Origin: an uncultured virus (IMG/VR IMGVR_UViG_3300026549_001681)
Lineage: Duplodnaviria > Heunggongvirae > Uroviricota > Caudoviricetes
DNA: 20,000 nt
Virus record (IMG/VR): IMGVR_UViG_3300026549_001681
Direction: 5' to 3' (one strand)
Within the stretch, counting starts at the first letter, position 1. Each line of letters opens with the position of its first letter. Under the pieces are notes generated by a model. That model saw only the letters and a list, made by a program, of their open reading frames with translations, had not been told where the DNA came from and ran no database searches. This document shows, in pieces, positions 2,609 through 13,166 of this stretch. The translations under genes and the position numbers were made by a program.

Positions 2609-3101
2609 AAGCATTTCCTCCTTGTTTTTGGATTTCTATTTATATGATGCCGAGCAAGACTCAAAATCGGACTGATTTATCGAACAATGTATGGGAGTTG
2701 TGTTACAAAATACAAAGTATGTCAAACAATTCTTTTTCCCAGACGTGAACAGGAAAACGGTGTATCGCGCCGTGGATACACGCTTAAACTGCAAAAATAA
2801 GCCCGTACCGTGCCCAAGCAAAAGGAGCGATACGGGTTTATCTCATTGTTCCTGTCGGTGAATACCGTGTTATATTCGCTGACATTTCGATTATACGACG
2901 ACCAAAATAGCAAGGTCAATGAATTTGGGATGTTACATACAGAGTTAGCAAAAAACGGAGTAATAGGAGTAGTAGCAAACTTTGCGGGAATGTGGTAATG
3001 GACAAAGAAATTATCTGTGAAATAATGCTTGAATTATATTGAAGATTCAATACTAAAGGAATAATATTATTCTGTAAATCATTTGTATGAGAGGTGTTCA
3101 C

Positions 3102-4916
3102 ATGCCTAAGTTTTTGACTGAAGATGAAGTAAGAGATGCTGATAAGATCGCTCTTGGTTTTGATAATGTTTTAGAGGTTGGTGTCAAACAAGGAACCGGT
3201 CAGATAACCACATTTAAGCAGTTGGGTATTGTTGGAGACGGTGATAACCATAAGCCTGACGGTTGGCGTATTCCTGAAAACAAAAATGATGTGGCGATTT
3301 TGCTTGAAACTAAAAATAGCAATGAAGATGTTGGTGCTAAGAAATGGATCCTCGAAATAATGAAAAATTGTGAGATCCTTTCCAATGCCGGTTATAAGAA
3401 AATCATTGGTATCCTTCACAATGGCTATAAAGCTATTGGTTTTTACAATGGAGAGCCCATTGATATTCCGGATGAAATACAGAACAAGCAGTTTTATATC
3501 GATCTGGTGAACAATCAGGGAATTGATCAGAAGAAGATTTATGATACTACAAGACGTATTAACAATAATCTTCATGTCAATTTCGGTGTTAAGAATTTGT
3601 ATCATAGAATGATTTTTACTGCTTGTGCATTAGTTGCAGAGAGATACGGTGCTAACCTTGAGACCTTAAAGGGTAGAGCATTTTCAATGCTTCACACTCA
3701 GATATTAAGCACGATCAACAAATCATTAGAGAATGATAAAAAACAGAACGGCAAGCTTAAGATTCTGGAAGATGTATATTCAAAGATAGAAATGAATTAT
3801 ACAGAGAATCAGGATGCTATTGATAGTTTTATCGATGACGTTTGTGAGATATCTGATTGTATCAACTCGAATGAATGGCGTGGAGAAGATGTTATGGGTA
3901 TCTTCTTTAATGAGTTCAATCGCTATAAGAAGAAGTCTGAAGCTGGTCAGATCTTTACACCTGAACACATCACATCGTTTATGTATCGGTTGATATGTGT
4001 AACTGAGAATGATTATGTTGGTGATTTCTGCTGTGGATCCGGTGGATTTCTTGTTAAGTCTATGAGTAACATGATGCGGTCTGCTGGTGGTTATGATACC
4101 AATAAGGCAAAGGATATTCGTAAAAATCATTTATTTGGTATCGAATGGGATAAGGAAATTTATGCGCTTGCTTGTGCTAATATGCTTATCCATAAAGACG
4201 GTAAGACCAATCTGGATCAGAATGATATGAGAAGTGAGTCAGCTTGTGAATGGGTTAAATCTAAGCCTATTACAAAAGTTCTGATGAACCCGCCTTATGA
4301 GAATAAGTATGGCTGCATGACTATTGTCGAAAATGTTCTTGATTCAGTCAAGGCAGGAACAGATTGTGCATTTATCTTACCTGATAAGAAACTTGAAAAG
4401 GCTTCAAAAGCACAGATTAAGCGTATCTTATCAAATCATACACTTACGAAGATTATTAAACTGCCTGAGCCGTTATTCTTTGGTGTAGGCGTTACTACTT
4501 CTATCTTTGTATTCAAGACAGGACAGCCTCAGAACGGTGCTGAAATCTTCGGATGCTATATCGAAGATGACGGCCTTGAAACTGTTAAGAATGAAGGCAG
4601 ACAGGATATTAAGCATAAGTGGAAGGATATCGAAGATTATTGGATTGACAGTATCGGTAAACTCCGTGACACCGAGCATAATACAGCACAGTGGATAAAC
4701 CCTAAAGAACATCTGTCATATCAGATGCCTGAAAAGCCTTTTGAGATTTCAGAGGAAGATTTCAAGAAAACTGCTATGGATTATATCTGCTTCAAGAATG
4801 GTATTGATACCAAAGAGTTCGGTGAGAAACTGCTTAATTCTGCTCTGTATGGTAGTGAAGTTACATCTGATGATACTGGCGTTCATATCAAGATAGGCGG
4901 TGGTTCAAATGATTGA
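3102..4916 (+). CDS. BcgI-like (type IIB) restriction-modification alpha subunit: nuclease plus N6-adenine methyltransferase
   Basis: N-terminal PDG...LLETK PD-(D/E)xK motif; GQIFTP; motif I DFCCGSGGFL; motif IV NPPY; GAGGTG RBS. Confidence 0.85.
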   Translation: MPKFLTEDEVRDADKIALGFDNVLEVGVKQGTGQITTFKQLGIVGDGDNHKPDGWRIPENKNDVAILLETKNSNEDVGAKKWILEIMKNCEILSNAGYKKIIGILHNGYKAIGFYNGEPIDIPDEIQNKQFYIDLVNNQGIDQKKIYDTTRRINNNLHVNFGVKNLYHRMIFTACALVAERYGANLETLKGRAFSMLHTQILSTINKSLENDKKQNGKLKILEDVYSKIEMNYTENQDAIDSFIDDVCEISDCINSNEWRGEDVMGIFFNEFNRYKKKSEAGQIFTPEHITSFMYRLICVTENDYVGDFCCGSGGFLVKSMSNMMRSAGGYDTNKAKDIRKNHLFGIEWDKEIYALACANMLIHKDGKTNLDQNDMRSESACEWVKSKPITKVLMNPPYENKYGCMTIVENVLDSVKAGTDCAFILPDKKLEKASKAQIKRILSNHTLTKIIKLPEPLFFGVGVTTSIFVFKTGQPQNGAEIFGCYIEDDGLETVKNEGRQDIKHKWKDIEDYWIDSIGKLRDTEHNTAQWINPKEHLSYQMPEKPFEISEEDFKKTAMDYICFKNGIDTKEFGEKLLNSALYGSEVTSDDTGVHIKIGGGSND

Positions 4917-5961
4917 TACAAGCACTTGGAAAGAGTTCAGGGTTGGTACTTTGTTTGATGTAAGCAGACCTTCTTCAAGAAGTTCACAGAATTATGATGA
5001 AGGCGATATGCCTTTTGTAGCATCTGGAAATTTCAATAATGGGGTTACAGCCTACTTACAGCCGAAAGACGATAATGATTACGATGAAGGTGGCTGTATT
5101 ACTGTGAGTGCTGTTGATGGTTATGCTTTCTATCAAAAGGATAAGTTTCTTGGTCGTGGCGGTGCAGGTTCCTCTATAATGATGTTAAGGAATGACAACC
5201 TTAATGAATTAAATGGAAAGTATATTTGTACTTTAATTCGCAAGGCTTGTAATGATTGGGAATATTCCAATATGGGTAATAAGGACAAACTTGCTGATAC
5301 TATGATATGGCTCCCCATTACATCTACAGGTGAACCTGATTGGCAGTATATGGAAGATTATATGAAGGCTGTCATGGAAGAATCAGAAAAAAGCCTTGAG
5401 AATCTGAGAAAAACCGATGATACAAAACATCTGATTGATATGAGCGGATGGAAAAGATTTCATTTATATGATGATTGTATGTTCGGTATTGACATGGGAA
5501 CGAAGATGGACAAGGCTAAGATGAAAGAAATTCACCCTTCTGTCAACTTCGTAGGTAGAGCAAATGCAAACAACGGTATTACTACTTGTGTTGATAAAAT
5601 AGATGATATTGAACCTTATCCTTCTGGCTATATGACATTATCATTGGGTGGTGAATATCTTGGTTCTTGTTTTATTCAACCTAAACCATTTTACACAAGC
5701 CAGAATGTAATTGTGTTAATACCTAACGATAATATGACGGATAATGTTAAAAGGTTTATAGCGACTATGATATTCAAAGAAAGTCGTTCAAAATATAAGG
5801 CTTTTGTAGATGAGTTAAATCGTCATATTAAAACTGATTTTTCAATTCCACTTCCTATCACCTCAACAGGCGAACCTGATTGGCAGTATATGGAAGATTA
5901 TATGCAAAGAATAATGGATAAATCAGAGCAGATTATATCTGATTTGCAGATTGGAGCGTAA
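4909..5961 (+). CDS. restriction-modification specificity subunit (two TRDs, BcgI beta/HsdS-like)
   Basis: Overlaps the stop of the MTase gene; duplicated LPITSTGEPDWQYMEDYM and WK(E/R)F repeats bound two TRDs. Confidence 0.85.
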   Translation: MIDTSTWKEFRVGTLFDVSRPSSRSSQNYDEGDMPFVASGNFNNGVTAYLQPKDDNDYDEGGCITVSAVDGYAFYQKDKFLGRGGAGSSIMMLRNDNLNELNGKYICTLIRKACNDWEYSNMGNKDKLADTMIWLPITSTGEPDWQYMEDYMKAVMEESEKSLENLRKTDDTKHLIDMSGWKRFHLYDDCMFGIDMGTKMDKAKMKEIHPSVNFVGRANANNGITTCVDKIDDIEPYPSGYMTLSLGGEYLGSCFIQPKPFYTSQNVIVLIPNDNMTDNVKRFIATMIFKESRSKYKAFVDELNRHIKTDFSIPLPITSTGEPDWQYMEDYMQRIMDKSEQIISDLQIGA

Positions 5962-5962
5962 T

Positions 5963-6127
5963 ATGCCACGCCCTAAGAAAGATGGTAAAGTAATAAACTA
6001 TTATGTACGGAAGGACTTGGTTGATCGCCTTGACGCTTATTCTGAGAAGTCGATGATACCCAAAACTTCTATTGTCGAAGCAGCGCTTCAGGACTATTTG
6101 GATAACGCAGAAAAGAACAAGAGATGA
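5963..6127 (+). CDS. ribbon-helix-helix DNA-binding protein (54 aa, not in ORF track)
   Basis: MPRPKKDGKVINYYVRKDLVDRLDAYSEKSMIPKTSIVEAALQDYLDNAEKNKR; GGAG RBS; strand-helix-helix pattern. Confidence 0.75.
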   Translation: MPRPKKDGKVINYYVRKDLVDRLDAYSEKSMIPKTSIVEAALQDYLDNAEKNKR

Positions 6128-6130
6128 GCT

Positions 6131-6364
6131 ATGCCAAAAGAAATTCGTGATGCAATACACGAAATGAACCTGTTTGTCCTGTCTCAGAAAGGCGTGTCGT
6201 ATTACGATGTGAAAAACTACGCTTTGCAAAACGATAAGCAGAACTGGTTGTCAGCGCTAAAAAACAAGAGTGTCCGCACAGGAATATCCGAGTTGTGCAG
6301 ATCTAAGAGGAAGAAAGACAACGTACCATACAACACGTTTTTCGGCGAACCATATACACAGTGA
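6131..6364 (+). CDS. hypothetical protein
   Basis: ORF starts 3 nt after the RHH gene. Confidence 0.55.
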   Translation: MPKEIRDAIHEMNLFVLSQKGVSYYDVKNYALQNDKQNWLSALKNKSVRTGISELCRSKRKKDNVPYNTFFGEPYTQ

Positions 6365-6380
6365 CAGGAGGTAACATACT

Positions 6381-6611
6381 ATGCGTAAATTACTTGAAGA
6401 ATATAACACCGGCAAGATTACCTGGGATGAAGCGTACCGGATCGCCAATAATAACGCAGCAACCGCTTCTGAAGTCGGCAATACCGAAGAAGTGGAATAC
6501 TGGACACACTTGATGAATGAACTTGGCGTAGAACTCGCTGACCAGTTCATGAAGACGCTCGGCTATAAGCAGAACAAAAGTGGTGCGTTCTTTAAGCCGG
6601 GCGATAATTAA
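6381..6611 (+). CDS. hypothetical protein
   Basis: AGGAGGT RBS. Confidence 0.7.
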   Translation: MRKLLEEYNTGKITWDEAYRIANNNAATASEVGNTEEVEYWTHLMNELGVELADQFMKTLGYKQNKSGAFFKPGDN

Positions 6612-6741
6612 ACAGCGTTGAACAAGTTTCAACATAGTGCCTGGGCATCCTCTTTCTCTGTCGCCCGACGAGGAGAGGATGTCTGTCTTTTCTCTGCCGG
6701 CATCTACTTATAGTATTCCGTTCACTTTCCGAGAACAGAAA

Positions 6742-6858
6742 CCACTATGTATAGTCGGATACGGTTTTGTGGCTAAATTTAGCCAGCACAACCACAATAT
6801 GTGGACAACGTAGTGTTTCGTCCTTGACAAAAATCAACTTAACCCCAATATGTAGAGC
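6742..6858. promoter_or_regulatory. three NrdR-box-like motifs around a TTGACA
   Basis: ccaCtAtGTaTaGtcg (6742), ccaCaAtATgTgGaca (6792), cccCaAtATgTaGagc (6843) versus consensus acaCwAtATaTwGtgt. Confidence 0.45.
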
Positions 6859-6964
6859 ATTACAAAACCCCGGACAGACTAACTCGATCCGGGGCTCAGT
6901 GTGTGCAAACTAATCTCAATAATTTTCGTGGCGGATACCACACTATAATTATAATTCTCAAAAC

Positions 6965-6992
6965 AATAAAAAGCAAACAAATTTTCGTTTTT
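6965..6992. repeat. 28-bp direct repeat, copy 1
   Basis: AATAAAAAGCAAACAAATTTTCGTTTTT, identical at 9194-9221. Confidence 0.9.
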
Positions 6993-7095
6993 ATACACGC
7001 ACTTACAGACACACCAAAAGTCACCCAGAGCGAACGAAATGTCAGTTGAAATGTCCGCTTCGTTGTCGGTATATTGAGGAGAACAGGAGGTTACT

Positions 7096-9186
7096 ATGCT
7101 CGTTGACTCTATATTGAATGAAACATTAAACATCACTGATACTTCTACCATGAAAGAGTTTGCTGAACGGGTTGGTGTCAGCGAACGGCAGATATTACGC
7201 TGGAGAAAAGAAAGGTGCGTGCCTCGTACCCGCACGATCAACGAAGTATATGACCGACTACGCAGTATGTGTCCTGAACAGTCCCAAAGGCTCTCAGAAC
7301 TCGAAAAGGAGATGATTAAGGTCTGTATTCACCTGAGAGGCGAGCCGTTCGTTAGAAGTGAACACAGAGCTAAAGGCGATAATGATGTTCTCCAGAGGGC
7401 TGACAATGATTTTATACTCGGTAAGAAATTCAGGTTTAATACCAAGATTTTAGGCCACGCAAGGAACAATAACGTCTTCGTGGTTGGAATGAGCGGAAAA
7501 GGTAAGACTTCGTGTATCGTCGAACCTAATCTGTTACAGCGTAATGCGTCCTATATCGTAGCAGATGCAAAGGGCCAGATTGTCAATACGGTTGGAGGAC
7601 TGTTGCAAATGCCCGGTACATCTGACGATGGTTATAATATTAGGATACTGAATCTCAAGGATCCGTCCTGCTCATTCCATTACAATCCTTTCCGTTATAT
7701 CAGAAATGAAAATGACTGCGTGGTTTTGGGAAGAATAATCGCATTACACGATTGCGATGGTAACAAAACCAGTAGTGTTGATGCTTTTTGGGATAATACG
7801 AGCAGTCAGCTTATCACTGCGTTGATTTACTTCCTCTGGAAATATGGTTCTAAAGAAGAACAGAACTTTGTTAATTTGCTGAGCTTGTTAAAGCTAAGTA
7901 GTGAAGGCTTAGTAGGAAGAAATTGTTATCTTAAAGAGATGTTTCGCTTGCACTCTGACGATTTGTTTTTGATGGCACAAGCGGGATGTATGTTAGCAGC
8001 AAGCGAAAGAACACTTGATAGTATTATCAGTATTACCTACTCCTGCGTAGCACCTTTAGCAGAACCGGCGGTGTCCGAGATGATGTTGTACGATGAACTG
8101 CATTTGGAGGACTTTGCGGAAAGAAAGACAGCCGAGATACCGTCTTTGTTTGTTGTATGTGATGATATTCTGTCCAACAAAAACTTTATTGCTTGTATGT
8201 TATATAAGCAGTTGTTTGAACTGCTTTGTGAACACGCTGATCGCAGTCCGCTTGGAAGACTGCCGTTCCCGGTACGGTTTTTCCTTGATGATTTTACTAC
8301 GCTTGGACAGATACCTGATTTTAGTAATCTGATGTCTAATATGAGGTCAAGGAATATTTCCGTTGTCTTGATGGTGCAAAACGAAAATCAGCTTCAGGCT
8401 GTCTATGGAAATCAGTCAGAGAATATTATCGAGAACTGTAACTACTATGTTTGCTTGGGCGGGAACAGTTTAGACCAACAGGATAAGACCAAGAGGCGTT
8501 TTGGCAGGCGTATGTTTGAGAGAAACCGTGACAAAGGGTTTTATTTGGTGGATAACACTAAACGGCTTTACAATATCCGTCCGCTTCATTATCAGGAACA
8601 CCCCAACTGGTTTAATTATCCCTTTAATTATGTTGACTATATTCAGAGTAGGAAGAGGAAGGAAAGTCCTGCTTCGTTAATTGACATAGAAGAATTACAG
8701 CTTTGTTGTGAAATAAACAGCGAAGAACTCGGTAAGATTAAGCGTAAGACTAATGTATTGGATAGTTTTGCGGAAAAAGAACTTTATTCCGTTGTTGCAA
8801 GAACTGTGAAAAGCAAGTATTTAGTTGTTCCGCACTGTCATCTAAACGAGTTAGTGGATCTGAGTCATATTCGTTCCTTGGTTGTAAAGAAGAGACTGTC
8901 AATGATGCACTGTGATCTGATGGTCTTTGATAAAGATAATGTTAAGCCTGTTTGCGGTATTGAATGTGACGGGCCTTCGCATGATGAATCAGAGCAGAAA
9001 GTTCTCGATGAATATAAAGACATGGTATTTGAGCAAATAGGAATACCTCTACTGAGATTGAAATTGAATGGTCTTGGTGACGTTGCGGATTACGATGCAA
9101 TTTGCTCTAAGGTGCTGGAAATGGTAAAAGAATACGAAGAGCATAAGGCCGAGAATGATAAAGAGGCTTTGTTGACAGCATTATAA
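7096..9186 (+). CDS. VirD4/TraG-family coupling-protein-like ATPase with N-terminal HTH and C-terminal DUF2726-like nuclease fold
   Basis: FAERVGVSERQILRW (HTH); GMSGKGKT Walker A; YNPF; FFLDDF Walker B; SRNISVVLMVQNENQL; HCDLMVFD...IECDGPSH; AGGAGG RBS. Confidence 0.8.
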   Translation: MLVDSILNETLNITDTSTMKEFAERVGVSERQILRWRKERCVPRTRTINEVYDRLRSMCPEQSQRLSELEKEMIKVCIHLRGEPFVRSEHRAKGDNDVLQRADNDFILGKKFRFNTKILGHARNNNVFVVGMSGKGKTSCIVEPNLLQRNASYIVADAKGQIVNTVGGLLQMPGTSDDGYNIRILNLKDPSCSFHYNPFRYIRNENDCVVLGRIIALHDCDGNKTSSVDAFWDNTSSQLITALIYFLWKYGSKEEQNFVNLLSLLKLSSEGLVGRNCYLKEMFRLHSDDLFLMAQAGCMLAASERTLDSIISITYSCVAPLAEPAVSEMMLYDELHLEDFAERKTAEIPSLFVVCDDILSNKNFIACMLYKQLFELLCEHADRSPLGRLPFPVRFFLDDFTTLGQIPDFSNLMSNMRSRNISVVLMVQNENQLQAVYGNQSENIIENCNYYVCLGGNSLDQQDKTKRRFGRRMFERNRDKGFYLVDNTKRLYNIRPLHYQEHPNWFNYPFNYVDYIQSRKRKESPASLIDIEELQLCCEINSEELGKIKRKTNVLDSFAEKELYSVVARTVKSKYLVVPHCHLNELVDLSHIRSLVVKKRLSMMHCDLMVFDKDNVKPVCGIECDGPSHDESEQKVLDEYKDMVFEQIGIPLLRLKLNGLGDVADYDAICSKVLEMVKEYEEHKAENDKEALLTAL

Positions 9187-9193
9187 TTCAAGT

Positions 9194-9221
9194 AATAAAA
9201 AGCAAACAAATTTTCGTTTTT
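9194..9221. repeat. 28-bp direct repeat, copy 2
   Basis: Identical to 6965-6992. Confidence 0.9.
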
Positions 9222-9224
9222 CTG

Positions 9225-9260
9225 TTGCAATCCGTTGCAAATGAGAGTATAATGACATTG
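9225..9260 (+). promoter_or_regulatory. sigmaA promoter of tRNA array leader
   Basis: TTGCAA-N17-TATAAT-GACATTG. Confidence 0.75.
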
Positions 9261-9262
9261 AT

Positions 9263-9331
9263 GAAGGAAGTGCCTGTCCTTTATCTGGTGCAGAAGATAA
9301 CTGTATTCAGATAGACGGCACTTCTTTTTTT
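9263..9331 (+). ncRNA. 5' leader structure closed by GAAGTGCC/GGCACTTC with U-tract
   Basis: GAAGTGCC(T)GTC / GACGGCACTTC closing stem, inner hairpins TTATCT/AGATAA and CTG/CAG, then a T run. Confidence 0.5.
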
Positions 9332-9363
9332 ATGACTACAACGAAAGGACAAGGAAACATTCT

Positions 9364-9513
9364 ATGAAGTTTATGTTTACACAACTGAATTGGCAGAGAA
9401 TAGTCGCTGAGAAGGCGTCATATTCAGTATGTTCCTTGTTCCCGTCACGCTCTCATAGTGAGAACTATGCCATTGAAGGCAAAGATACAGGACATGGGGG
9501 ACGATCACAATGA
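9364..9513 (+). CDS. putative attenuator leader peptide (49 aa)
   Basis: MKFMFTQLNWQRIVAEKASYSVCSLFPSRSHSENYAIEGKDTGHGGRSQ; AAGGA RBS; last codons overlap the antiterminator strand. Confidence 0.55.
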   Translation: MKFMFTQLNWQRIVAEKASYSVCSLFPSRSHSENYAIEGKDTGHGGRSQ

Positions 9514-9556
9514 AGTGATTAGTTTTTGTTAGGCACAACAAGAGTTAATGCTGATT

Positions 9557-9602
9557 GAGGATCGTCCCGGAAGAGAACAAACCGAGGCGATCCTTTTATT
9601 TT
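9557..9602 (+). terminator. intrinsic terminator/attenuator ahead of the tRNA array
   Basis: GAGGATCGTC-C-CGG / CCG-A-GGCGATCCTT stem followed by TTATTTT. Confidence 0.7.
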
Positions 9603-9636
9603 GTTCTCACGCACCTTGACAATTTAATCTCAATAC

Positions 9637-9710
9637 ACCCTTGTCATTCAAAGGTAGGATAACTGACTGTTAATCAGATAATACAGGTTCAACTCCTGTC
9701 GAGGGTGCCA
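9637..9710 (+). tRNA. tRNA-Asn(GTT)
   Basis: ACCCTTG/CGAGGGT acceptor, loop CTGTTAA, GGTTCAACTCC, CCA. Confidence 0.9.
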
Positions 9711-9802
9711 ATAAAGAAGTTCTGTAAGGAAACAGGCACTCCTTACAAAGCCTCTTACAAAGGGGCAAAAGGAAACCAGGCACTTCCTTTGTCCCTCCTT
9801 AT

Positions 9803-9880
9803 GGAGAGTTAGCTGATCCGGTGAAAGCTCCAGGTTGAAGCCCTGGGTACAGGTTGGTCCGACACCAACACTCCCCACCA
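9803..9880 (+). tRNA. tRNA-Phe(GAA)
   Basis: CCAGG-TTGAAGC-CCTGG, atypical T-loop TCCGACA, CCA. Confidence 0.85.
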
Positions 9881-9895
9881 TCAAGTGCCTGACAT

Positions 9896-9970
9896 GGATC
9901 TCTGGTGCAACGGTAGCACTCCAGACTTTTAATCTGCGTAATGTGAGTTCGAATCTCGCGGGGTCCACCA
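9896..9970 (+). tRNA. tRNA-Lys(TTT)
   Basis: loop CTTTTAA, GTTCGAATC, CCA. Confidence 0.9.
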
Positions 9971-9974
9971 AAAT

Positions 9975-10050
9975 GGGTATGTAACTCAATCGGCAGAGTA
10001 CCGGTCTCTTAAACCGGGAGTTGCAGGATCGTTGCCTGTCATGCCCACCA
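9975..10050 (+). tRNA. tRNA-Lys(CTT)
   Basis: CCGGT-CTCTTAA-ACCGG, CCA. Confidence 0.9.
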
Positions 10051-10054
10051 ATAC

Positions 10055-10132
10055 GGCTCTGTGGGAAAGTAGCGCTAATCCGCCTGCCCGTCACGCAGGA
10101 GATCGCCGGTTCGAGTCCGGTCAGAGTCGCCA
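10055..10132 (+). tRNA. tRNA-Asp(GTC)
   Basis: CCTGC-CCGTCAC-GCAGG, GCCA end. Confidence 0.9.
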
Positions 10133-10134
10133 GA

Positions 10135-10205
10135 AAGTCTTTGTCTGTGGTGTAAACGCAAGCATCTGTCAGGGCTCCGGTTGGATTCCGGACAGACAAG
10201 GACTT
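10135..10205 (+). ncRNA. tRNA-like RNA without proper anticodon stem, 13-bp closing stem, no CCA
   Basis: AAGTCTTTGTCTG/CAGACAAGGACTT; D-like arm; TCCGG-TTGGATT-CCGGA T-like arm. Confidence 0.6.
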
Positions 10206-10212
10206 AACCTAT

Positions 10213-10286
10213 CGGGGTGTCGTATAACGGTAGTATCCGTGGCCTGGGACCACGTGGCGAGGGTTCGACTCCTTCTACTCCGACCA
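10213..10286 (+). tRNA. tRNA-Pro(TGG)
   Basis: CGTGG-CCTGGGA-CCACG, CCA. Confidence 0.9.
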
Positions 10287-10292
10287 ATAAAT

Positions 10293-10368
10293 GTCCTCAT
10301 AGTCAAGTTGGCCAAGACGGTGGAACTTCACTCCACAGGCGAGGGTTCGAATCCCTCTGAGGGTACCA
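10293..10368 (+). tRNA. tRNA-Glu(TTC)
   Basis: GTGGA-ACTTCAC-TCCAC, CCA. Confidence 0.85.
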
Positions 10369-10371
10369 AAT

Positions 10372-10446
10372 GGCGCTTTCTTCTATCGGCCAGGAAAACG
10401 GGTTCTCAGCCCGTGAAGCAGGGTTCAACTCCCTGAAGCGTCACCA
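10372..10446 (+). tRNA. tRNA-Glu(CTC)
   Basis: ACGGG-TTCTCAG-CCCGT, CCA. Confidence 0.9.
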
Positions 10447-10508
10447 GACCGAAGACCTGTTCGACTCAGGAAGGCGCCCTTGATTAGTGTAACGGAGAGC
10501 ACGCGGTC
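10447..10508 (+). ncRNA. circularly permuted tRNA-like RNA (T-arm, closed acceptor hairpin, D-arm)
   Basis: GACCG/CGGTC closing stem; CCTG-TTCGACT-CAGG; AAGG-CGC-CCTT; TA-GTG-TAACGGAGAG-CAC. Confidence 0.6.
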
Positions 10509-10515
10509 CTAACAT

Positions 10516-10593
10516 ATCCTTGTGGCGGAATAAGGCAGACGCAGACGGTTCAGATCCGTAAAGTTGGAGGTTCGAGTCCTCTCAGGGATACCA
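10516..10593 (+). tRNA. tRNA-Leu(CAG), short variable loop
   Basis: ACGG-TTCAGAT-CCGT, Leu-type D arm, ACCA. Confidence 0.85.
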
Positions 10594-10597
10594 ACAT

Positions 10598-10676
10598 ACC
10601 TTCGTAGCAGAACTGGCGTATGCGCTGGACTAAGGATCCAGGTCTTTTGTGGGTTCGACTCCCACCGGAGGTACCA
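10598..10676 (+). tRNA. tRNA-Leu(AAG), short variable loop
   Basis: CTGGA-CTAAGGA-TCCAG, ACCA. Confidence 0.85.
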
Positions 10677-10679
10677 AAC

Positions 10680-10756
10680 GCGCTTGTAGTAGAACGGCAT
10701 ATACGGCGGGTTTAAGCCCCGTGTCACTCCCGGTTCGAATCCGGGCTGGCGCACCA
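10680..10756 (+). tRNA. tRNA-Leu(TAA), short variable loop
   Basis: GCGGG-TTTAAGC-CCCGT, ACCA. Confidence 0.85.
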
Positions 10757-10761
10757 AATAC

Positions 10762-10837
10762 ACTCGCATAGCACAACCGGACAGTGCAGCGGTCTTCTAA
10801 ACCGCGTATCGGAGTTCGAGTCTTCGTGCGAGTGCCA
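10762..10837 (+). tRNA. tRNA-Arg(TCT)
   Basis: GCGGT-CTTCTAA-ACCGC, GCCA. Confidence 0.9.
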
Positions 10838-10840
10838 ACA

Positions 10841-10927
10841 CAGATGATAGGCAAAAGGAAGTAGGTACTGAGATTTCGGTACATGAAAACAAGTAGCCGA
10901 AGAGCAGAATCGCGACTGTTTCATCTG
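10841..10927 (+). ncRNA. structured non-tRNA RNA with two AGUA/GAA motifs
   Basis: CAGATGA/TCATCTG closing stem; GTACTGA-GATT-TCGGTAC hairpin. Confidence 0.5.
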
Positions 10928-10935
10928 ATCTATAT

Positions 10936-11012
10936 GTCTGGTTGATGCAGATGGCAGACATGGCTGACTCAAAATCAGTCTTTCCCGGGTTCGAGCCCCG
11001 GATCAGACACCA
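10936..11012 (+). tRNA. tRNA-Leu(CAA), short variable loop
   Basis: GCTGA-CTCAAAA-TCAGT, ACCA. Confidence 0.85.
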
Positions 11013-11124
11013 GCTGGGGATACCCAAGTCACCCAAAGGGGCCGGCGCGTAACCCGGTGTCCAAAGGACGGTGTGCACCTTGCGTCCCGGACTGCGCAGG
11101 TATGGAATCCTGCTCCCCGCACCA
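11013..11124 (+). tRNA. aberrant 112-nt tRNA-Tyr-like RNA
   Basis: GC(T)GGGGA/TCCCCGC-ACCA; 8-nt anticodon loop CGCGTAAC; multi-hairpin variable region; GCAGG-TATGGAAT-CCTGC. Confidence 0.6.
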
Positions 11125-11127
11125 AAT

Positions 11128-11202
11128 GCTTCTCTGGCACAATGGGACTGCGCCTGCCTTGTAAGCAGGAATGAGTGAGTTCGATTCTCACGGGAAGCTC
11201 CA
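11128..11202 (+). tRNA. tRNA-Thr(TGT)
   Basis: CCTGC-CTTGTAA-GCAGG, TCCA. Confidence 0.9.
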
Positions 11203-11210
11203 CTAAAAAG

Positions 11211-11289
11211 GCTCAGACGAGGCCTGTAATGCGTCCGTAGAAAAATTCTTATACGGTTAAGGTCTGAGCGACAGGAACGCAGCACAGGC
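11211..11289 (+). ncRNA. pseudoknotted structured RNA
   Basis: GCTCAGAC/GTCTGAGC, CCGTA/TACGG, crossing pairs GCCTGT/ACAGGC and TGCGT/ACGCA. Confidence 0.55.
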
Positions 11290-11296
11290 AAGATAT

Positions 11297-11372
11297 GGGC
11301 CAGAAGTCGCAATGGGGTGACGTGAGTTTTGCAAACTTGAGATGGCGGGTTCGATCCCCGTGTGGTCCACCA
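11297..11372 (+). tRNA. tRNA-Ala(TGC)
   Basis: loop TTTGCAA, G3:U70 pair, ACCA. Confidence 0.85.
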
Positions 11373-11412
11373 GGGTTCTTCAAAACTTCTCCTGACAAAA
11401 GAAGCGCACCAT

Positions 11413-11489
11413 ACCCGGATAACTCAGCTTGGGAGAGTGCCTGTCCTACAAACAGGAAGTCGTGGGTTCGATCCCCGCTCTGGGTACCA
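11413..11489 (+). tRNA. tRNA-Val(TAC)
   Basis: CCTGT-CCTACAA-ACAGG, ACCA. Confidence 0.9.
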
Positions 11490-11496
11490 AAGGCAC

Positions 11497-11581
11497 GGTC
11501 AGCGAGTAGCCTGGCCACGGTGGATAAGCCGGAAACGGAGTGTATCGGAGGTTCGAATCCTTCGCCGGGGAAAAGCTGACC
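11497..11581 (+). ncRNA. tRNA-elbow mimic with GAAA hairpin in place of anticodon arm and AGUA/GAA internal loop
   Basis: GGTCAGC/GCTGACC; CCTGG/CCGGG; CCG-GAAA-CGG; CGGAGG-TTCGAAT-CCTTCG; no CCA. Confidence 0.6.
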
Positions 11582-11593
11582 TAAACCTTATAT

Positions 11594-11668
11594 GCAGGCA
11601 TCGTATAGCGGCAATTACACCGGCTTGCCAAGTCGGATACACGGGTTCAAATCCCGTTGCTTGCTCCA
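11594..11668 (+). tRNA. tRNA-Gly(GCC)
   Basis: CCGGC-TTGCCAA-GTCGG, TCCA. Confidence 0.9.
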
Positions 11669-11672
11669 ACAC

Positions 11673-11748
11673 ATCAGGATAGTTTAATTGGTAAAACAGC
11701 GGTCTCCAAAACCGCACGATCAGGGTTCGAGTCCTTGTCTTGGTGCCA
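11673..11748 (+). tRNA. tRNA-Trp(CCA)
   Basis: GCGGT-CTCCAAA-ACCGC, GCCA. Confidence 0.9.
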
Positions 11749-11752
11749 ATAT

Positions 11753-11825
11753 TGCGGAGAGGTACGGAAACCACGCAGGCCTCATAAGCCTGACCTTTCG
11801 AGTTCGACTCTCGGCTCCGCAACCA
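11753..11825 (+). tRNA. tRNA-Met(CAT), initiator-like acceptor, reduced D arm
   Basis: TGCGGAG/CTCCGCA-ACCA; CAGGC-CTCATAA-GCCTG. Confidence 0.8.
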
Positions 11826-11827
11826 AA

Positions 11828-11897
11828 TGCAGTCAGTTCAGAGGTCGGGAGCTGATTAAATGCCGTACCCTTGAGGATTCCCCGGCAGCTGGCTGCG
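11828..11897 (+). ncRNA. rod-like structured RNA with bulge and large apical loop
   Basis: TGCAGTCAGTT/AGCTGGCTGCG, bulge CAGAG, GTCGGG/CCCGGC. Confidence 0.5.
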
Positions 11898-11903
11898 AAA
11901 TAT

Positions 11904-11978
11904 GAGGTCGTTAGTGTAATGGCAGCACGGCAGTTTGTGGCACTGCAAGCAAGAGATCGATACTCTTACCTCCTCCCA
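11904..11978 (+). tRNA. tRNA-His(GTG)
   Basis: GCAGT-TTGTGGC-ACTGC, G-1:C73, two acceptor mismatches. Confidence 0.85.
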
Positions 11979-11983
11979 AATAT

Positions 11984-12057
11984 GCTTCGTTGGTGTAACG
12001 GTAGCACGCCTTCCTTCCAAGCAGGCAATGAGGGTTCAATTCCCTTACGGAGCTCCA
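11984..12057 (+). tRNA. tRNA-Gly(TCC)
   Basis: loop CTTCCAA, TCCA. Confidence 0.9.
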
Positions 12058-12063
12058 ATAAAT

Positions 12064-12151
12064 GCCGTCGTAACCCGTTAAGGAGGCGGAACGGACTGTA
12101 AATCCGTTACTTAGTAAGTTCGAGTGGGTTCGATACCCTCAGGCGGCACCA
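12064..12151 (+). tRNA. tRNA-Tyr(GTA)
   Basis: ACGGA-CTGTAAA-TCCGT, long variable arm, ACCA. Confidence 0.85.
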
Positions 12152-12155
12152 ATAT

Positions 12156-12229
12156 CGTAGCATCTTTCAAAGGTAGGAAACGCGTCTGATAAGCGTGTAA
12201 TGGTAGTTCGATTCTATCTGCTACGACCA
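12156..12229 (+). tRNA. tRNA-Ile(GAT)
   Basis: CGCGT-CTGATAA-GCGTG, ACCA. Confidence 0.9.
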
Positions 12230-12233
12230 ATTT

Positions 12234-12308
12234 CGGAATATAGCGCAACGGTAGAGCAGGCGGCTTATATCCGTCAGGTTCAAGGTTCAAATCCTTGTGT
12301 TCCGACCA
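12234..12308 (+). tRNA. tRNA-Ile(TAT)
   Basis: GGCGG-CTTATAT-CCGTC, ACCA. Confidence 0.85.
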
Positions 12309-12313
12309 ACAAC

Positions 12314-12387
12314 GCATCGTTTGTCTCCGGCGAGGCAACCGGTCTGCAAAACCGACAAGATCAGTTCGACTCTGATACGATGCTCCA
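12314..12387 (+). tRNA. tRNA-Cys(GCA)
   Basis: loop CTGCAAA, U73-CCA. Confidence 0.85.
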
Positions 12388-12391
12388 ACAT

Positions 12392-12467
12392 GCTCTCGTA
12401 AGCCAATCGGAAGACTACCTCGCTACGAACGAGTCAGTTGCAGGTTCGAGCCCTGTCGGGAGTACCA
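12392..12467 (+). tRNA. tRNA-Arg(ACG)
   Basis: CTCG-CTACGAA-CGAG, ACCA. Confidence 0.9.
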
Positions 12468-12471
12468 ACAT

Positions 12472-12545
12472 TGTCCTTTAGCGTAACGGTAGCGCCGGGG
12501 CCTTTGACACCTTAGGAGAAAGTTCGATTCTTTCAAGGACAGCCA
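12472..12545 (+). tRNA. tRNA-Gln(TTG)
   Basis: loop CTTTGAC, U1:A72, GCCA. Confidence 0.85.
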
Positions 12546-12550
12546 ACTTT

Positions 12551-12626
12551 GCCGGATTAGCACAACCGGTCGTGCAACGGTTCCGTAAACCGTGTGATGA
12601 GGGTTCGAGTCCCTTGTTCGGCTCCA
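12551..12626 (+). tRNA. tRNA-Thr(CGT)
   Basis: ACGGT-TCCGTAA-ACCGT, TCCA. Confidence 0.9.
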
Positions 12627-12631
12627 TTTAT

Positions 12632-12725
12632 GACTATGTAAGCCTAACTGGTAAGGCACTTGCTTGGAAAGCAAGGAGTAATCGTGACGAGCGGTGTGCT
12701 GGTTCGAGTCCGGTCATAGTCGCCA
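12632..12725 (+). tRNA. tRNA-Ser(GGA)
   Basis: CTTGC-TTGGAAA-GCAAG, long variable arm, GCCA. Confidence 0.9.
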
Positions 12726-12727
12726 AT

Positions 12728-12817
12728 GACAGACAAACTCAGACGGCTCTGAGCGCAGTTTCGAAAACTGATGGCACGGGAAACCTGTGTGGGGATCGAC
12801 ACCTCTGTTTGTCGCCA
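12728..12817 (+). tRNA. tRNA-Ser(CGA)
   Basis: CAGT-TTCGAAA-ACTG, long variable arm, GCCA. Confidence 0.85.
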
Positions 12818-12821
12818 AAAT

Positions 12822-12897
12822 GCTTGCATAGTTCAGAAGGCAGAACGTCTGCTCGGTAAGCAGAAGGTGGACGGTTCAATTCCGTCTGTAAGCTCCA
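12822..12897 (+). tRNA. tRNA-Thr(GGT)
   Basis: TCTGC-TCGGTAA-GCAGA, TCCA. Confidence 0.9.
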
Positions 12898-12902
12898 ATT
12901 AC

Positions 12903-12987
12903 GCCGTGTGTCCGGGAGGTGAGGAAGGTGCCTTGAAAGCATTTGACCGGAAACGGTTTGCAGGTTCGAATCCTGTGCACGGCGCCA
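12903..12987 (+). tRNA. tRNA-Ser(TGA)
   Basis: GGTGC-CTTGAAA-GCATT, long variable arm, GCCA. Confidence 0.9.
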
Positions 12988-12992
12988 AATAC

Positions 12993-13066
12993 AGAGGTCT
13001 GGTGAAACGGCATCCCGTCCGGCTCTGAACCGGAAGTACAAAGTTCGACTCTTTGGATCTCTGCCA
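12993..13066 (+). tRNA. tRNA-Gln(CTG)
   Basis: TCCGG-CTCTGAA-CCGGA, GCCA. Confidence 0.85.
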
Positions 13067-13071
13067 CGAAT

Positions 13072-13166
13072 GTTGGTCTAAGCCTAACAGGTAAGGCAGC
13101 GGTTTGCTAAACCGTAAGTAACCGTAGATATACGGTGTCTGAGTTCGAGTCTCAGGATCAACGCCA
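13072..13166 (+). tRNA. tRNA-Ser(GCT)
   Basis: GCGGT-TTGCTAA-ACCGT, long variable arm, GCCA. Confidence 0.9.

Follow-up and report, generated by a model that had tools for sequence, protein, structure and literature searches.

A 20,000-nucleotide stretch of DNA from an uncultured virus (IMG/VR record IMGVR_UViG_3300026549_001681; Duplodnaviria; Heunggongvirae; Uroviricota; Caudoviricetes), referred to here as the window, carries a long array of transfer RNA (tRNA) genes. Between a promoter-like sequence and the first tRNA gene lies a leader with a small open reading frame (ORF) and a predicted intrinsic terminator, and the last codons of the ORF are complementary to one arm of that terminator (Table 1). 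A preliminary description of the window had proposed that this leader is a transcription attenuator gating the array. Comparison with homologous leaders argues for such an attenuator and suggests that the codons of the ORF are matched to the tRNA genes that follow it.

Table 1. Features of the leader and the tRNA array, in window coordinates
Feature	Position	Strand	Remarks
Promoter-like TTGCAA-17-TATAAT	9225..9253	+	10/12 matches; predicted start near 9260
Invariant 5' box, GATGAAGGAAGTGCCTGTCC..ATC, 5' arm of T1	9260..9286	+	unchanged in 35/35 aligned leaders
T1, long imperfect hairpin followed by U7, 5' of the leader ORF	9264..9332	+	minimum free energy fold
Shine-Dalgarno region (GAAAGGA, AAGGAA) of the leader ORF	9343..9356	+	GAAAGGA nearly invariant in the family
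Leader ORF, 49 amino acids (MKFMFTQLNWQRIVAEKASYSVCSLFPSRSHSENYAIEGKDTGHGGRSQ, then stop), ATG to TGA	9364..9513	+	ORF list, script count
Mid-ORF segment able to pair with the spacer between Shine-Dalgarno region and start (9347-9360)	9429..9442	+	minimum free energy fold
A, antiterminator 5' strand, within the last ORF codons	9498..9506	+	stop codon 4 nt downstream
H, small hairpin at the antiterminator apex, conserved loop AGGCAC	9525..9542	+	6 pairs, 97.6% of cells paired, 3 compensatory pairs
T2, predicted intrinsic terminator	9559..9602	+	B 9559-9570, C 9582-9593, U-run 9594-9602; B also in antiterminator
TTGACAA box between T2 and tRNA-Asn	9616..9622	+	invariant or nearly so in family alignments
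tRNA array	9637..13166	+	33 ARAGORN calls, 19 isotypes; 27 calls at Rfam gathering score
Weak tRNA-Ala(tgc)	~11297-11372	+	relaxed ARAGORN settings only; 18 bits in Rfam

The leader family

The nearest genome to the window, G001, has a leader 98% identical to that of the window, and comparative work was based on this genome and its relatives. An exact 20-mer of the 5' box occurs at 48 loci in species-representative genomes and in 92 metagenome stretches, and has no match among viral contigs; by their titles, the genome carriers are rumen and gut Clostridia, many of them named Saccharofermentans. BLAST with the leader in 61 related genomes matched 10, all from one genus (10/37, with 0/24 in three sister families). 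In nine of these the locus adjoins a tRNA array that opens with tRNA-Asn(gtt), and in the tenth (L009) the contig ends right after the match. A tRNA array lies 326-530 nt 3' of the motif in all 54 motif-bearing entries with enough downstream DNA, of 59 in total. There are 44 distinct leaders, designated here by L numbers. Because the neighbouring genes differ from locus to locus, promoter, leader and array appear to travel as one module.

A homologous ORF was assigned in 40 of the 44 unique leaders. It has 21-61 codons, begins 8-20 nt 3' of GAAAGGA, and in most leaders ends in G-R-L-R-C-stop (window 9499-9513). A structure alignment (A2) was built from 35 leaders, with nine of divergent length (L010, L016, L019, L024, L028, L043, L056, L057 and L059) set aside. 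Within the ORF all 12 distinct gap blocks and all 179 gap runs of this alignment are multiples of three; outside it the same is true of 8/29 blocks before and 5/24 after. By these measures the reading frame is conserved across leaders of homologous arrays. Column entropy is 0.99, 1.09 and 1.17 at the three codon positions, only slightly higher at the third. Translation of the leader ORF thus appears, from these patterns, to be under selection, and the peptide sequence weakly so.

Terminator and antiterminator

The preliminary description had noted a match between the end of the ORF and the terminator, and this match is exact: GGGACGATC (9498-9506), strand A, is the reverse complement of GATCGTCCC (9560-9568). 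It covers 9 nt in the window and extends neither way. The terminator T2 consists of GGATCGTCCCGG (strand B), an 11-nt loop, CCGAGGCGATCC (strand C) and TTTTATTTT to 9602, and is missed by a simple terminator scan that permits loops of 3-8 nt only. Strand B is therefore shared by two predicted helices, A:B in the antiterminator and B:C in the terminator.

Both helices are preserved by compensatory changes across alignment A2. A:B has eight pairs, with 95.7% of cells paired and compensatory changes at three pairs (in 3, 12 and 6 sequences), and RNAalifold selects it as consensus unaided. B:C has 10 pairs, with 94.0% of cells paired and two compensatory pairs (nine sequences and one sequence). 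The covariation score of both whole structures was reached by 0/500 column shuffles, and sliding the partner columns lowers pairing from 90% to 32-54%. At one B position, A tracks B by Watson-Crick changes where C tolerates G-U, which points to selection on the antiterminator itself.

The position of the stop codon fits a switch operated by the terminating ribosome. The stop lies 4-7 nt past A in 31/35 leaders. When the RNA was folded with a ribosome footprint (stop-15 to stop+14) kept unpaired, B:C formed in 35/35 leaders, and when the RNA was folded as a co-transcriptional snapshot ending at B, A:B formed in 35/35. Mean hairpin energies are -22.3 kcal/mol for the antiterminator (A..B) and -17.8 kcal/mol for the terminator (B..C). 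Taken together, the frame-conserved ORF, the shared strand B, the covariation of both helices and the masking of A by a ribosome at the stop support the architecture and the direction of switching that the preliminary description had predicted.

The A strand and adjoining bases account for at least part of the conservation at the leader end. Its R-L-R also resembles the +x+ macrolide arrest motif of ErmDL.

Other pairings within the leader are less consistent. The preliminary description had the ribosome-binding-site region pair with a segment inside the ORF; GGACAAGGAAACAT at 9347 and ATGTTCCTTGTTCC at 9429 do exist, but they are not exact complements and form bulged pairing only. Support for this helix in the family is partial, with 68.3% of cells paired and compensatory changes at three central pairs. 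No conserved upstream partner of A (a segment 1, or anti-antiterminator) was identified in the leaders. A family hairpin inside the ORF, H0 (91.9% paired), was rejected as part of the window, where it has no good helix. The fold of 9255-9640 as a whole has an energy of -113.8 kcal/mol (z -4.42), and 0/100 shuffles were equally stable.

Leader codons follow the tRNA genes of their own array

The preliminary description had put the ORF forward as a candidate pan-codon leader peptide, one that would report damage to translation in general. Its count for the window is correct: a script finds 49 amino acids, all 20 kinds and 37 different sense codons. For a single ORF, the chance of all 20 amino acids is P=0.034 in random draws with window codon usage and 0.010 among real 49-codon windows, and the chance of at least 37 codons is 0.0097 and 0.0045, respectively; these figures are modest, and the feature was noticed after the fact. 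Among the relatives this diversity is rare. All 20 amino acids occur in 3/40 leaders (the window, its near-copy L001, and L058), and the mean excess over a composition null is -0.24 for distinct amino acids and +2.4 for distinct codons. A full amino-acid set was therefore rejected as a selected trait of the family, and a pan-codon design does not hold for the family as a whole; the codons track the leader's own array instead.

This relation was measured by a match score, the fraction of leader codons read by the leader's own array under simple wobble rules. The main test used 24 lineages (leaders <0.7 similar, redundant ones collapsed) with complete arrays; three leaders with truncated arrays and four without an assigned ORF (L019, L024, L028 and L057, examined apart) were omitted from the codon tests. 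The mean score is 0.524 against 0.425±0.012 for shuffled leader-array pairs, and 0/20,000 shuffles were as high, a permutation probability that overstates independence because the lineages are related. Across all 37 complete loci the score is 0.515 against 0.422±0.009. When all 24 leaders are ranked on one array, the leader that belongs to it comes first in nine lineages, and the divergent leader L060 is first of 25 on its array. When shuffling was confined to clades, defined from non-coding leader DNA, 0/5,000 shuffles were as high.

Several controls indicate that the match belongs to the translated frame. The z-score is 8.5 in frame, -0.7 and -0.3 in the other frames and 1.0 on the reverse strand, which rules against base composition as its cause. 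Host codon usage was likewise rejected, since flanking protein genes show no match: at 21 common loci their z is -0.4 vs 7.6 for the leaders, and the leader scores above the flanking gene in 19/21. Cognate codons are commoner when the array has the tRNA in 19/19 testable isotypes and 13/14 anticodon classes, as in Pro CCR (1.30 with the tRNA vs 0.06 without) and Trp (0.98 vs 0.09). By position, z is 7.5 in the ~20 codons just upstream of A, 4.7 in the first half and 1.9 from A to the stop; the match is thus strongest where stalling would leave A free.

Individual leaders illustrate the rule. The arrays of L016 and L043 both hold Tyr, Ile(tat), Asp and His; in L016 these four amino acids account for 22/44 leader codons, with all four Ile codons ATA, and the L043 leader reads ..IDIYHYDYD... 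The array of L010 (Asn, Tyr, Gln, Cys) is preceded by a leader with five Asn, four Tyr and four Cys codons, three of the last before the C-terminal GRSRC. An array that includes Thr(tgt), in L033, is preceded by a run of Thr codons, mostly ACA.

Leaders of arrays with more isotypes use a wider range of codons (rho 0.69, p 0.0002) and of amino acids (rho 0.53). In the window the largest array (19-20 isotypes) goes together with the leader of greatest diversity; 92% of the codons of this leader are read by the array, and the four left over are GTC and three Ala codons. Because this array is the fullest, the near-complete codon sampling of the window leader can be understood as the top end of the match rule. 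In this sense "pan-codon" is refined to "codon-matched to own array", a reading supported by the sequence comparisons.

The same rule-based pipeline was applied to metagenome loci, of which 43/80 were unusable (nine without an array in view, 32 truncated and two without an ORF by rule). In 11 new lineages the score is 0.433 against 0.359±0.019 (p 0.00015), with no signal in other frames. One such array of Asn, Phe, Lys, Thr and Val tRNAs follows a leader in which N, F, K, T and V are abundant. Two related metagenome leaders contain four and one Asp codons, respectively, and tRNA-Asp is present in the array of one.

The tRNA array

G001 has 60 tRNA matches, ~19 on the array contig and ~41 scattered elsewhere, so that the array represents an additional tRNA set; in this genome the array tRNAs score lower against the tRNA model. 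Family arrays hold 2-33 tRNAs in a common order: Asn, Phe, Lys, Lys, Asp, Pro, Glu, Glu, Leu.., Arg, Leu, Thr, Val, Gly, Trp, Met, His, Gly, Tyr, Ile, Ile, Cys, Arg, Gln, .. Ser. Judged by this order, it is as if different genes had repeatedly been lost from one long array to give the smaller ones. Asn, Asp, Tyr, His and Ile(tat) are frequent in the smallest sets. In the window, the weak tRNA-Ala(tgc) is 85% identical over 41 nt to a tRNA-Ala of a relative, and with it counted the array would span all 20 isotypes. A 94-nt "tRNA-Gly" called by ARAGORN (11478-11571) overlaps tRNA-Val and has no Rfam match, yet contains a GGTTCGAATCC T-loop.

Hairpins with the loop A(A/C)CAGGCAC and covarying stems are present both in the leader (9525-9542) and, in nearly all arrays, downstream of tRNA-Asn; in the window the latter site is the spacer between tRNA-Asn and tRNA-Phe (9711-9802). 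The loop is exactly complementary to GUGCCUG in the invariant 5' box, and GGCAC has a density of 3.9 per kb in array spacers vs ~1 per kb expected. A T-box-like pairing of the AGGCAC loop with the tRNA 3' end was considered and rejected, since the loop complements GUGCCU of the 5' box and not GUGCCA of tRNA.

Promoter region, T1 and the TTGACAA box

The promoter-like sequence was found in a scan that is not enriched overall (three sites vs 4.7±2.2 expected). Most relatives have TTGCRC-17-TATCTT at an equal distance from the invariant box. The promoters of the window and L001 differ from these in carrying, around the -35 position, the direct repeat TTGCAA-TCCG-TTGCAA, together with TATAAT; in most relatives the spacer carries a CATC..GATG palindrome. 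Homology between the window and the relatives begins exactly at the invariant box (alignment A1). From their sequences, the direct repeat and the palindrome may be operator sites.

Hairpin T1 begins ~4 nt past the predicted transcription start and is terminator-like. It has 16 consensus pairs in the family, with 95.0% of cells paired, and a T-run of at least five follows it in 44/44 unique leaders. Its 5' arm is invariant and its 3' partner variable, and the invariant arm has no competitor upstream. The TTGACAA box resembles a -35 hexamer and sits 15-20 nt before tRNA-Asn; the promoter scan found no -10 partner for it. A promoter for the array 3' of 9602 would have contradicted the preliminary description; the scan shows none that is convincing, only this -35-like TTGACA, and RNA contigs are unbroken from 9274 into the tRNAs.

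RNA contigs were compared from four runs of four studies, among 14 runs containing the stretch. In two of these runs (X1 and X3) contigs start at 9274, cross the T1 U-run, the ORF and T2 and continue into the tRNAs, reaching 10512 and 10051. Their depth is 110 and 17.5, compared with at most 3.9 and 0, respectively, for the upstream gene, although as metatranscriptome contigs they do not report transcript ends, levels or termination efficiency and may include DNA. A contig of a relative (X6) runs from 9325 to beyond 10800. The starts at 9274 give a weak indication of a 5' end close to the predicted start, whereas gaps in cover upstream of 9210 carry no weight on their own.

Genomic setting

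The gene setting looks like a conjugative element. Genes 5' of the array encode a VirD4/TraG-type coupling protein of a type IV secretion system fused to a C-terminal DUF2726 nuclease-like domain (7096-9186), immediately before the array, type I restriction-modification methylase (M) and specificity (S) subunits (with the coupling protein, within 3087-9186) and a C39 peptidase. A DNA methylase and helix-turn-helix proteins are encoded downstream. BLAST of 9190-9900 against plasmid and phage collections returned no match, and no known Rfam family was found on the leader (best match 22 bits vs a cut-off of 43). Among 27 upstream neighbours examined in the family, one is an RtcB RNA ligase gene directly 5' of the leader on the same strand (L007:128-1363, +; Pfam E 6e-57).

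Proposed mechanism

From the sequence comparisons, the leader probably acts as a ribosome-mediated transcription attenuator for an accessory tRNA operon and senses decoding capacity for the operon's own tRNAs. Transcription would begin near 9260, and the leader ORF (9364-9513) would be translated as RNA polymerase proceeds. A ribosome that promptly reached the stop codon would cover A (9498-9506) with its footprint, B (9559-9570) would pair with C (9582-9593), and T2 would stop transcription before tRNA-Asn. If tRNAs for the leader codons were scarce, damaged or uncharged, the ribosome would be slowed upstream of A, and A:B would form once B is made. T2 would then be blocked and the array transcribed, the net outcome being negative feedback on decoding capacity. 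We infer leader translation, stall-driven read-through and the kind of shortage that would be sensed (amount, integrity or charging).

Several observations weigh against this mechanism or are left outside it. The window leader is itself uninformative for the match (0.92 vs 0.91, rank 13/24), as its array reads nearly everything. One lineage with a 94- or 24-codon ORF (L062, L063, L064 and L118) is unmatched, with ranks 11-16 of 25 and 11 of 11, and so are L044 and L175; the relatedness of the lineages and the simplicity of the wobble rules belong here as well. Conservation in the N-terminal half of the peptide exceeds what a pure codon meter requires. In 4/35 leaders the stop codon lies 22 nt past A, so that a terminating ribosome would leave A uncovered. 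At equilibrium the full naked leader adopts the terminator in 25/35 cases and the antiterminator in 10/35, and a ribosome mask 12 codons before A still leaves the terminator in 24/35 and the antiterminator in 11/35. Since equilibrium folding favours the terminator, the switch must work kinetically, by co-transcriptional trapping of A:B, as in classical attenuators. T2 is at least leaky, given that read-through RNA (possibly DNA) is present in rumen samples. Finally, neither the second terminator-like hairpin, T1, 5' of the ORF nor the invariant TTGACAA 3' of T2 is accounted for by the model.

A more speculative extension, which is possible but doubtful, treats the leader as an evolvable meter of decoding capacity, a test gene rewritten codon by codon as tRNA genes are lost and gained. 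The spare set would be made only when the cell's tRNAs for those codons fail, for example under attack in the rumen by toxins that target tRNA, such as anticodon nucleases. The 5' box, T1 and the CAGGCAC loops may then form a second layer, linking the leader with the way in which the array transcript is processed.

Alternative explanations

It is improbable that the leader is instead a codon-blind sensor of general translation stress, in which any slowing of the leader ribosome by antibiotics or global damage opens the array and all codons are sampled by design. The diversity of the window leader would suit such a sensor, and because A:B forms whenever A is free (35/35 snapshots), any early stall or failed initiation would give read-through. 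The Anabaena trn array is reported to be induced by translation inhibitors (PMC8421152). However, complete amino-acid sets are confined to 3/40 leaders with a negative mean excess, and a codon-blind sensor does not predict frame-specific tracking of array by leader codons. The two ideas are not exclusive, as a matched leader would also answer global inhibition.

Still less probable is a sensor of amino-acid starvation that reads the charging of tRNA rather than its amount or integrity. The architecture is that of the trp, his, thr and ilv leaders, and the codon match alone cannot separate charged from total tRNA. Yet extra tRNA gives no relief of an amino-acid shortage, which would leave the feedback without purpose; the regulated products are tRNAs only, and the set of codons sensed changes as tRNA genes are gained or lost.

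That the ORF is an independent small-protein gene with T2 as its own terminator, and that the array is driven by a promoter at the invariant TTGACA (9616-9621), is very unlikely: the N-terminal half of the peptide is fairly conserved and TTGACAA is invariant between T2 and tRNA-Asn, but this TTGACA has no -10 partner in the scan, the codon-position entropies imply weak protein-level selection, the RNA contigs are continuous across T2, A:B covariation would have no role and the leader-array codon match would go unexplained.

Relation to known systems

Accessory tRNA arrays are widespread on mobile DNA and have been proposed as a backup or an anti-defence measure. An attenuator matched to its own array would explain how such arrays can be kept silent yet responsive to the loss of particular tRNAs, and the co-evolution of leader codons and tRNA genes makes it possible to predict from sequence alone the tRNAs that an array serves to buffer. 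A comparable array is the Anabaena trn L-array with its repressor TrcR (PMC8421152, PMC10272220), likewise a long accessory array in addition to the housekeeping tRNA genes, believed to function during translational stress and to be passed on horizontally. Co-regulation of rtcB with the Anabaena array is reported (PMC8421152), and RtcB stands directly upstream of the L007 leader here. Control in Anabaena is attributed to a repressor that binds DNA at direct repeats spanning the -10 box and start site, and PMC8421152 has 0 occurrences of "attenuat", "leader" or "terminator". In the present family, by contrast, control would reside in an RNA leader.

The T-box riboswitch is also a leader of Firmicutes that switches between terminator and antiterminator according to the state of tRNA, as the leaders described here would. 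It recognises uncharged tRNA by direct binding, lacks an ORF and acts on aminoacyl-tRNA synthetase and amino-acid genes. The present leaders differ from it in having an ORF, and an Rfam scan of 9200-9640 at a permissive cut-off (E up to 10) gave no T-box match.

Antibiotic-responsive attenuators of Gram-positive bacteria include those of bmrCD (PMC4191407), mef/mel (PMC4335068) and yxjB (PMC6851288). They too have a leader ORF in Firmicutes, a stalled ribosome that flips a terminator to an antiterminator, and read-through as the default when translation falters. They are described as sensing a drug-bound ribosome at a specific peptide motif and as controlling resistance genes, whereas the conserved property here is the match of codons to downstream tRNAs.

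Among the closest known systems are the leader-peptide attenuators of amino-acid operons, such as trpL, hisL, leuL and pheL and the multivalent thrL and ilvL (PMC1183508, PMC3082878). These attenuators read charged tRNA to control enzymes. The literature search, at the level of listings and abstracts, returned no description of leader-peptide control of tRNA genes. The elements shared with the amino-acid operons are a small ORF in the 5' leader preceded by a Shine-Dalgarno sequence, a terminator and an antiterminator with a common strand, regulatory codons cognate to the operon's product, and the direction of the response, with termination when the ribosome is at the ORF end and read-through when it is stalled upstream. 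The tRNA-array leaders depart from this scheme in that long single-codon runs are rare, no segment 1 was identified and an extra hairpin, T1, precedes the ORF. The codon set here ranges from two to ~20 amino acids and is revised as arrays lose tRNA genes. Moreover, the targets are tRNAs instead of biosynthetic enzymes, so that the sensed molecule is the product itself. The same attenuation device appears here to control the tRNA genes themselves, closing a feedback loop on decoding capacity.

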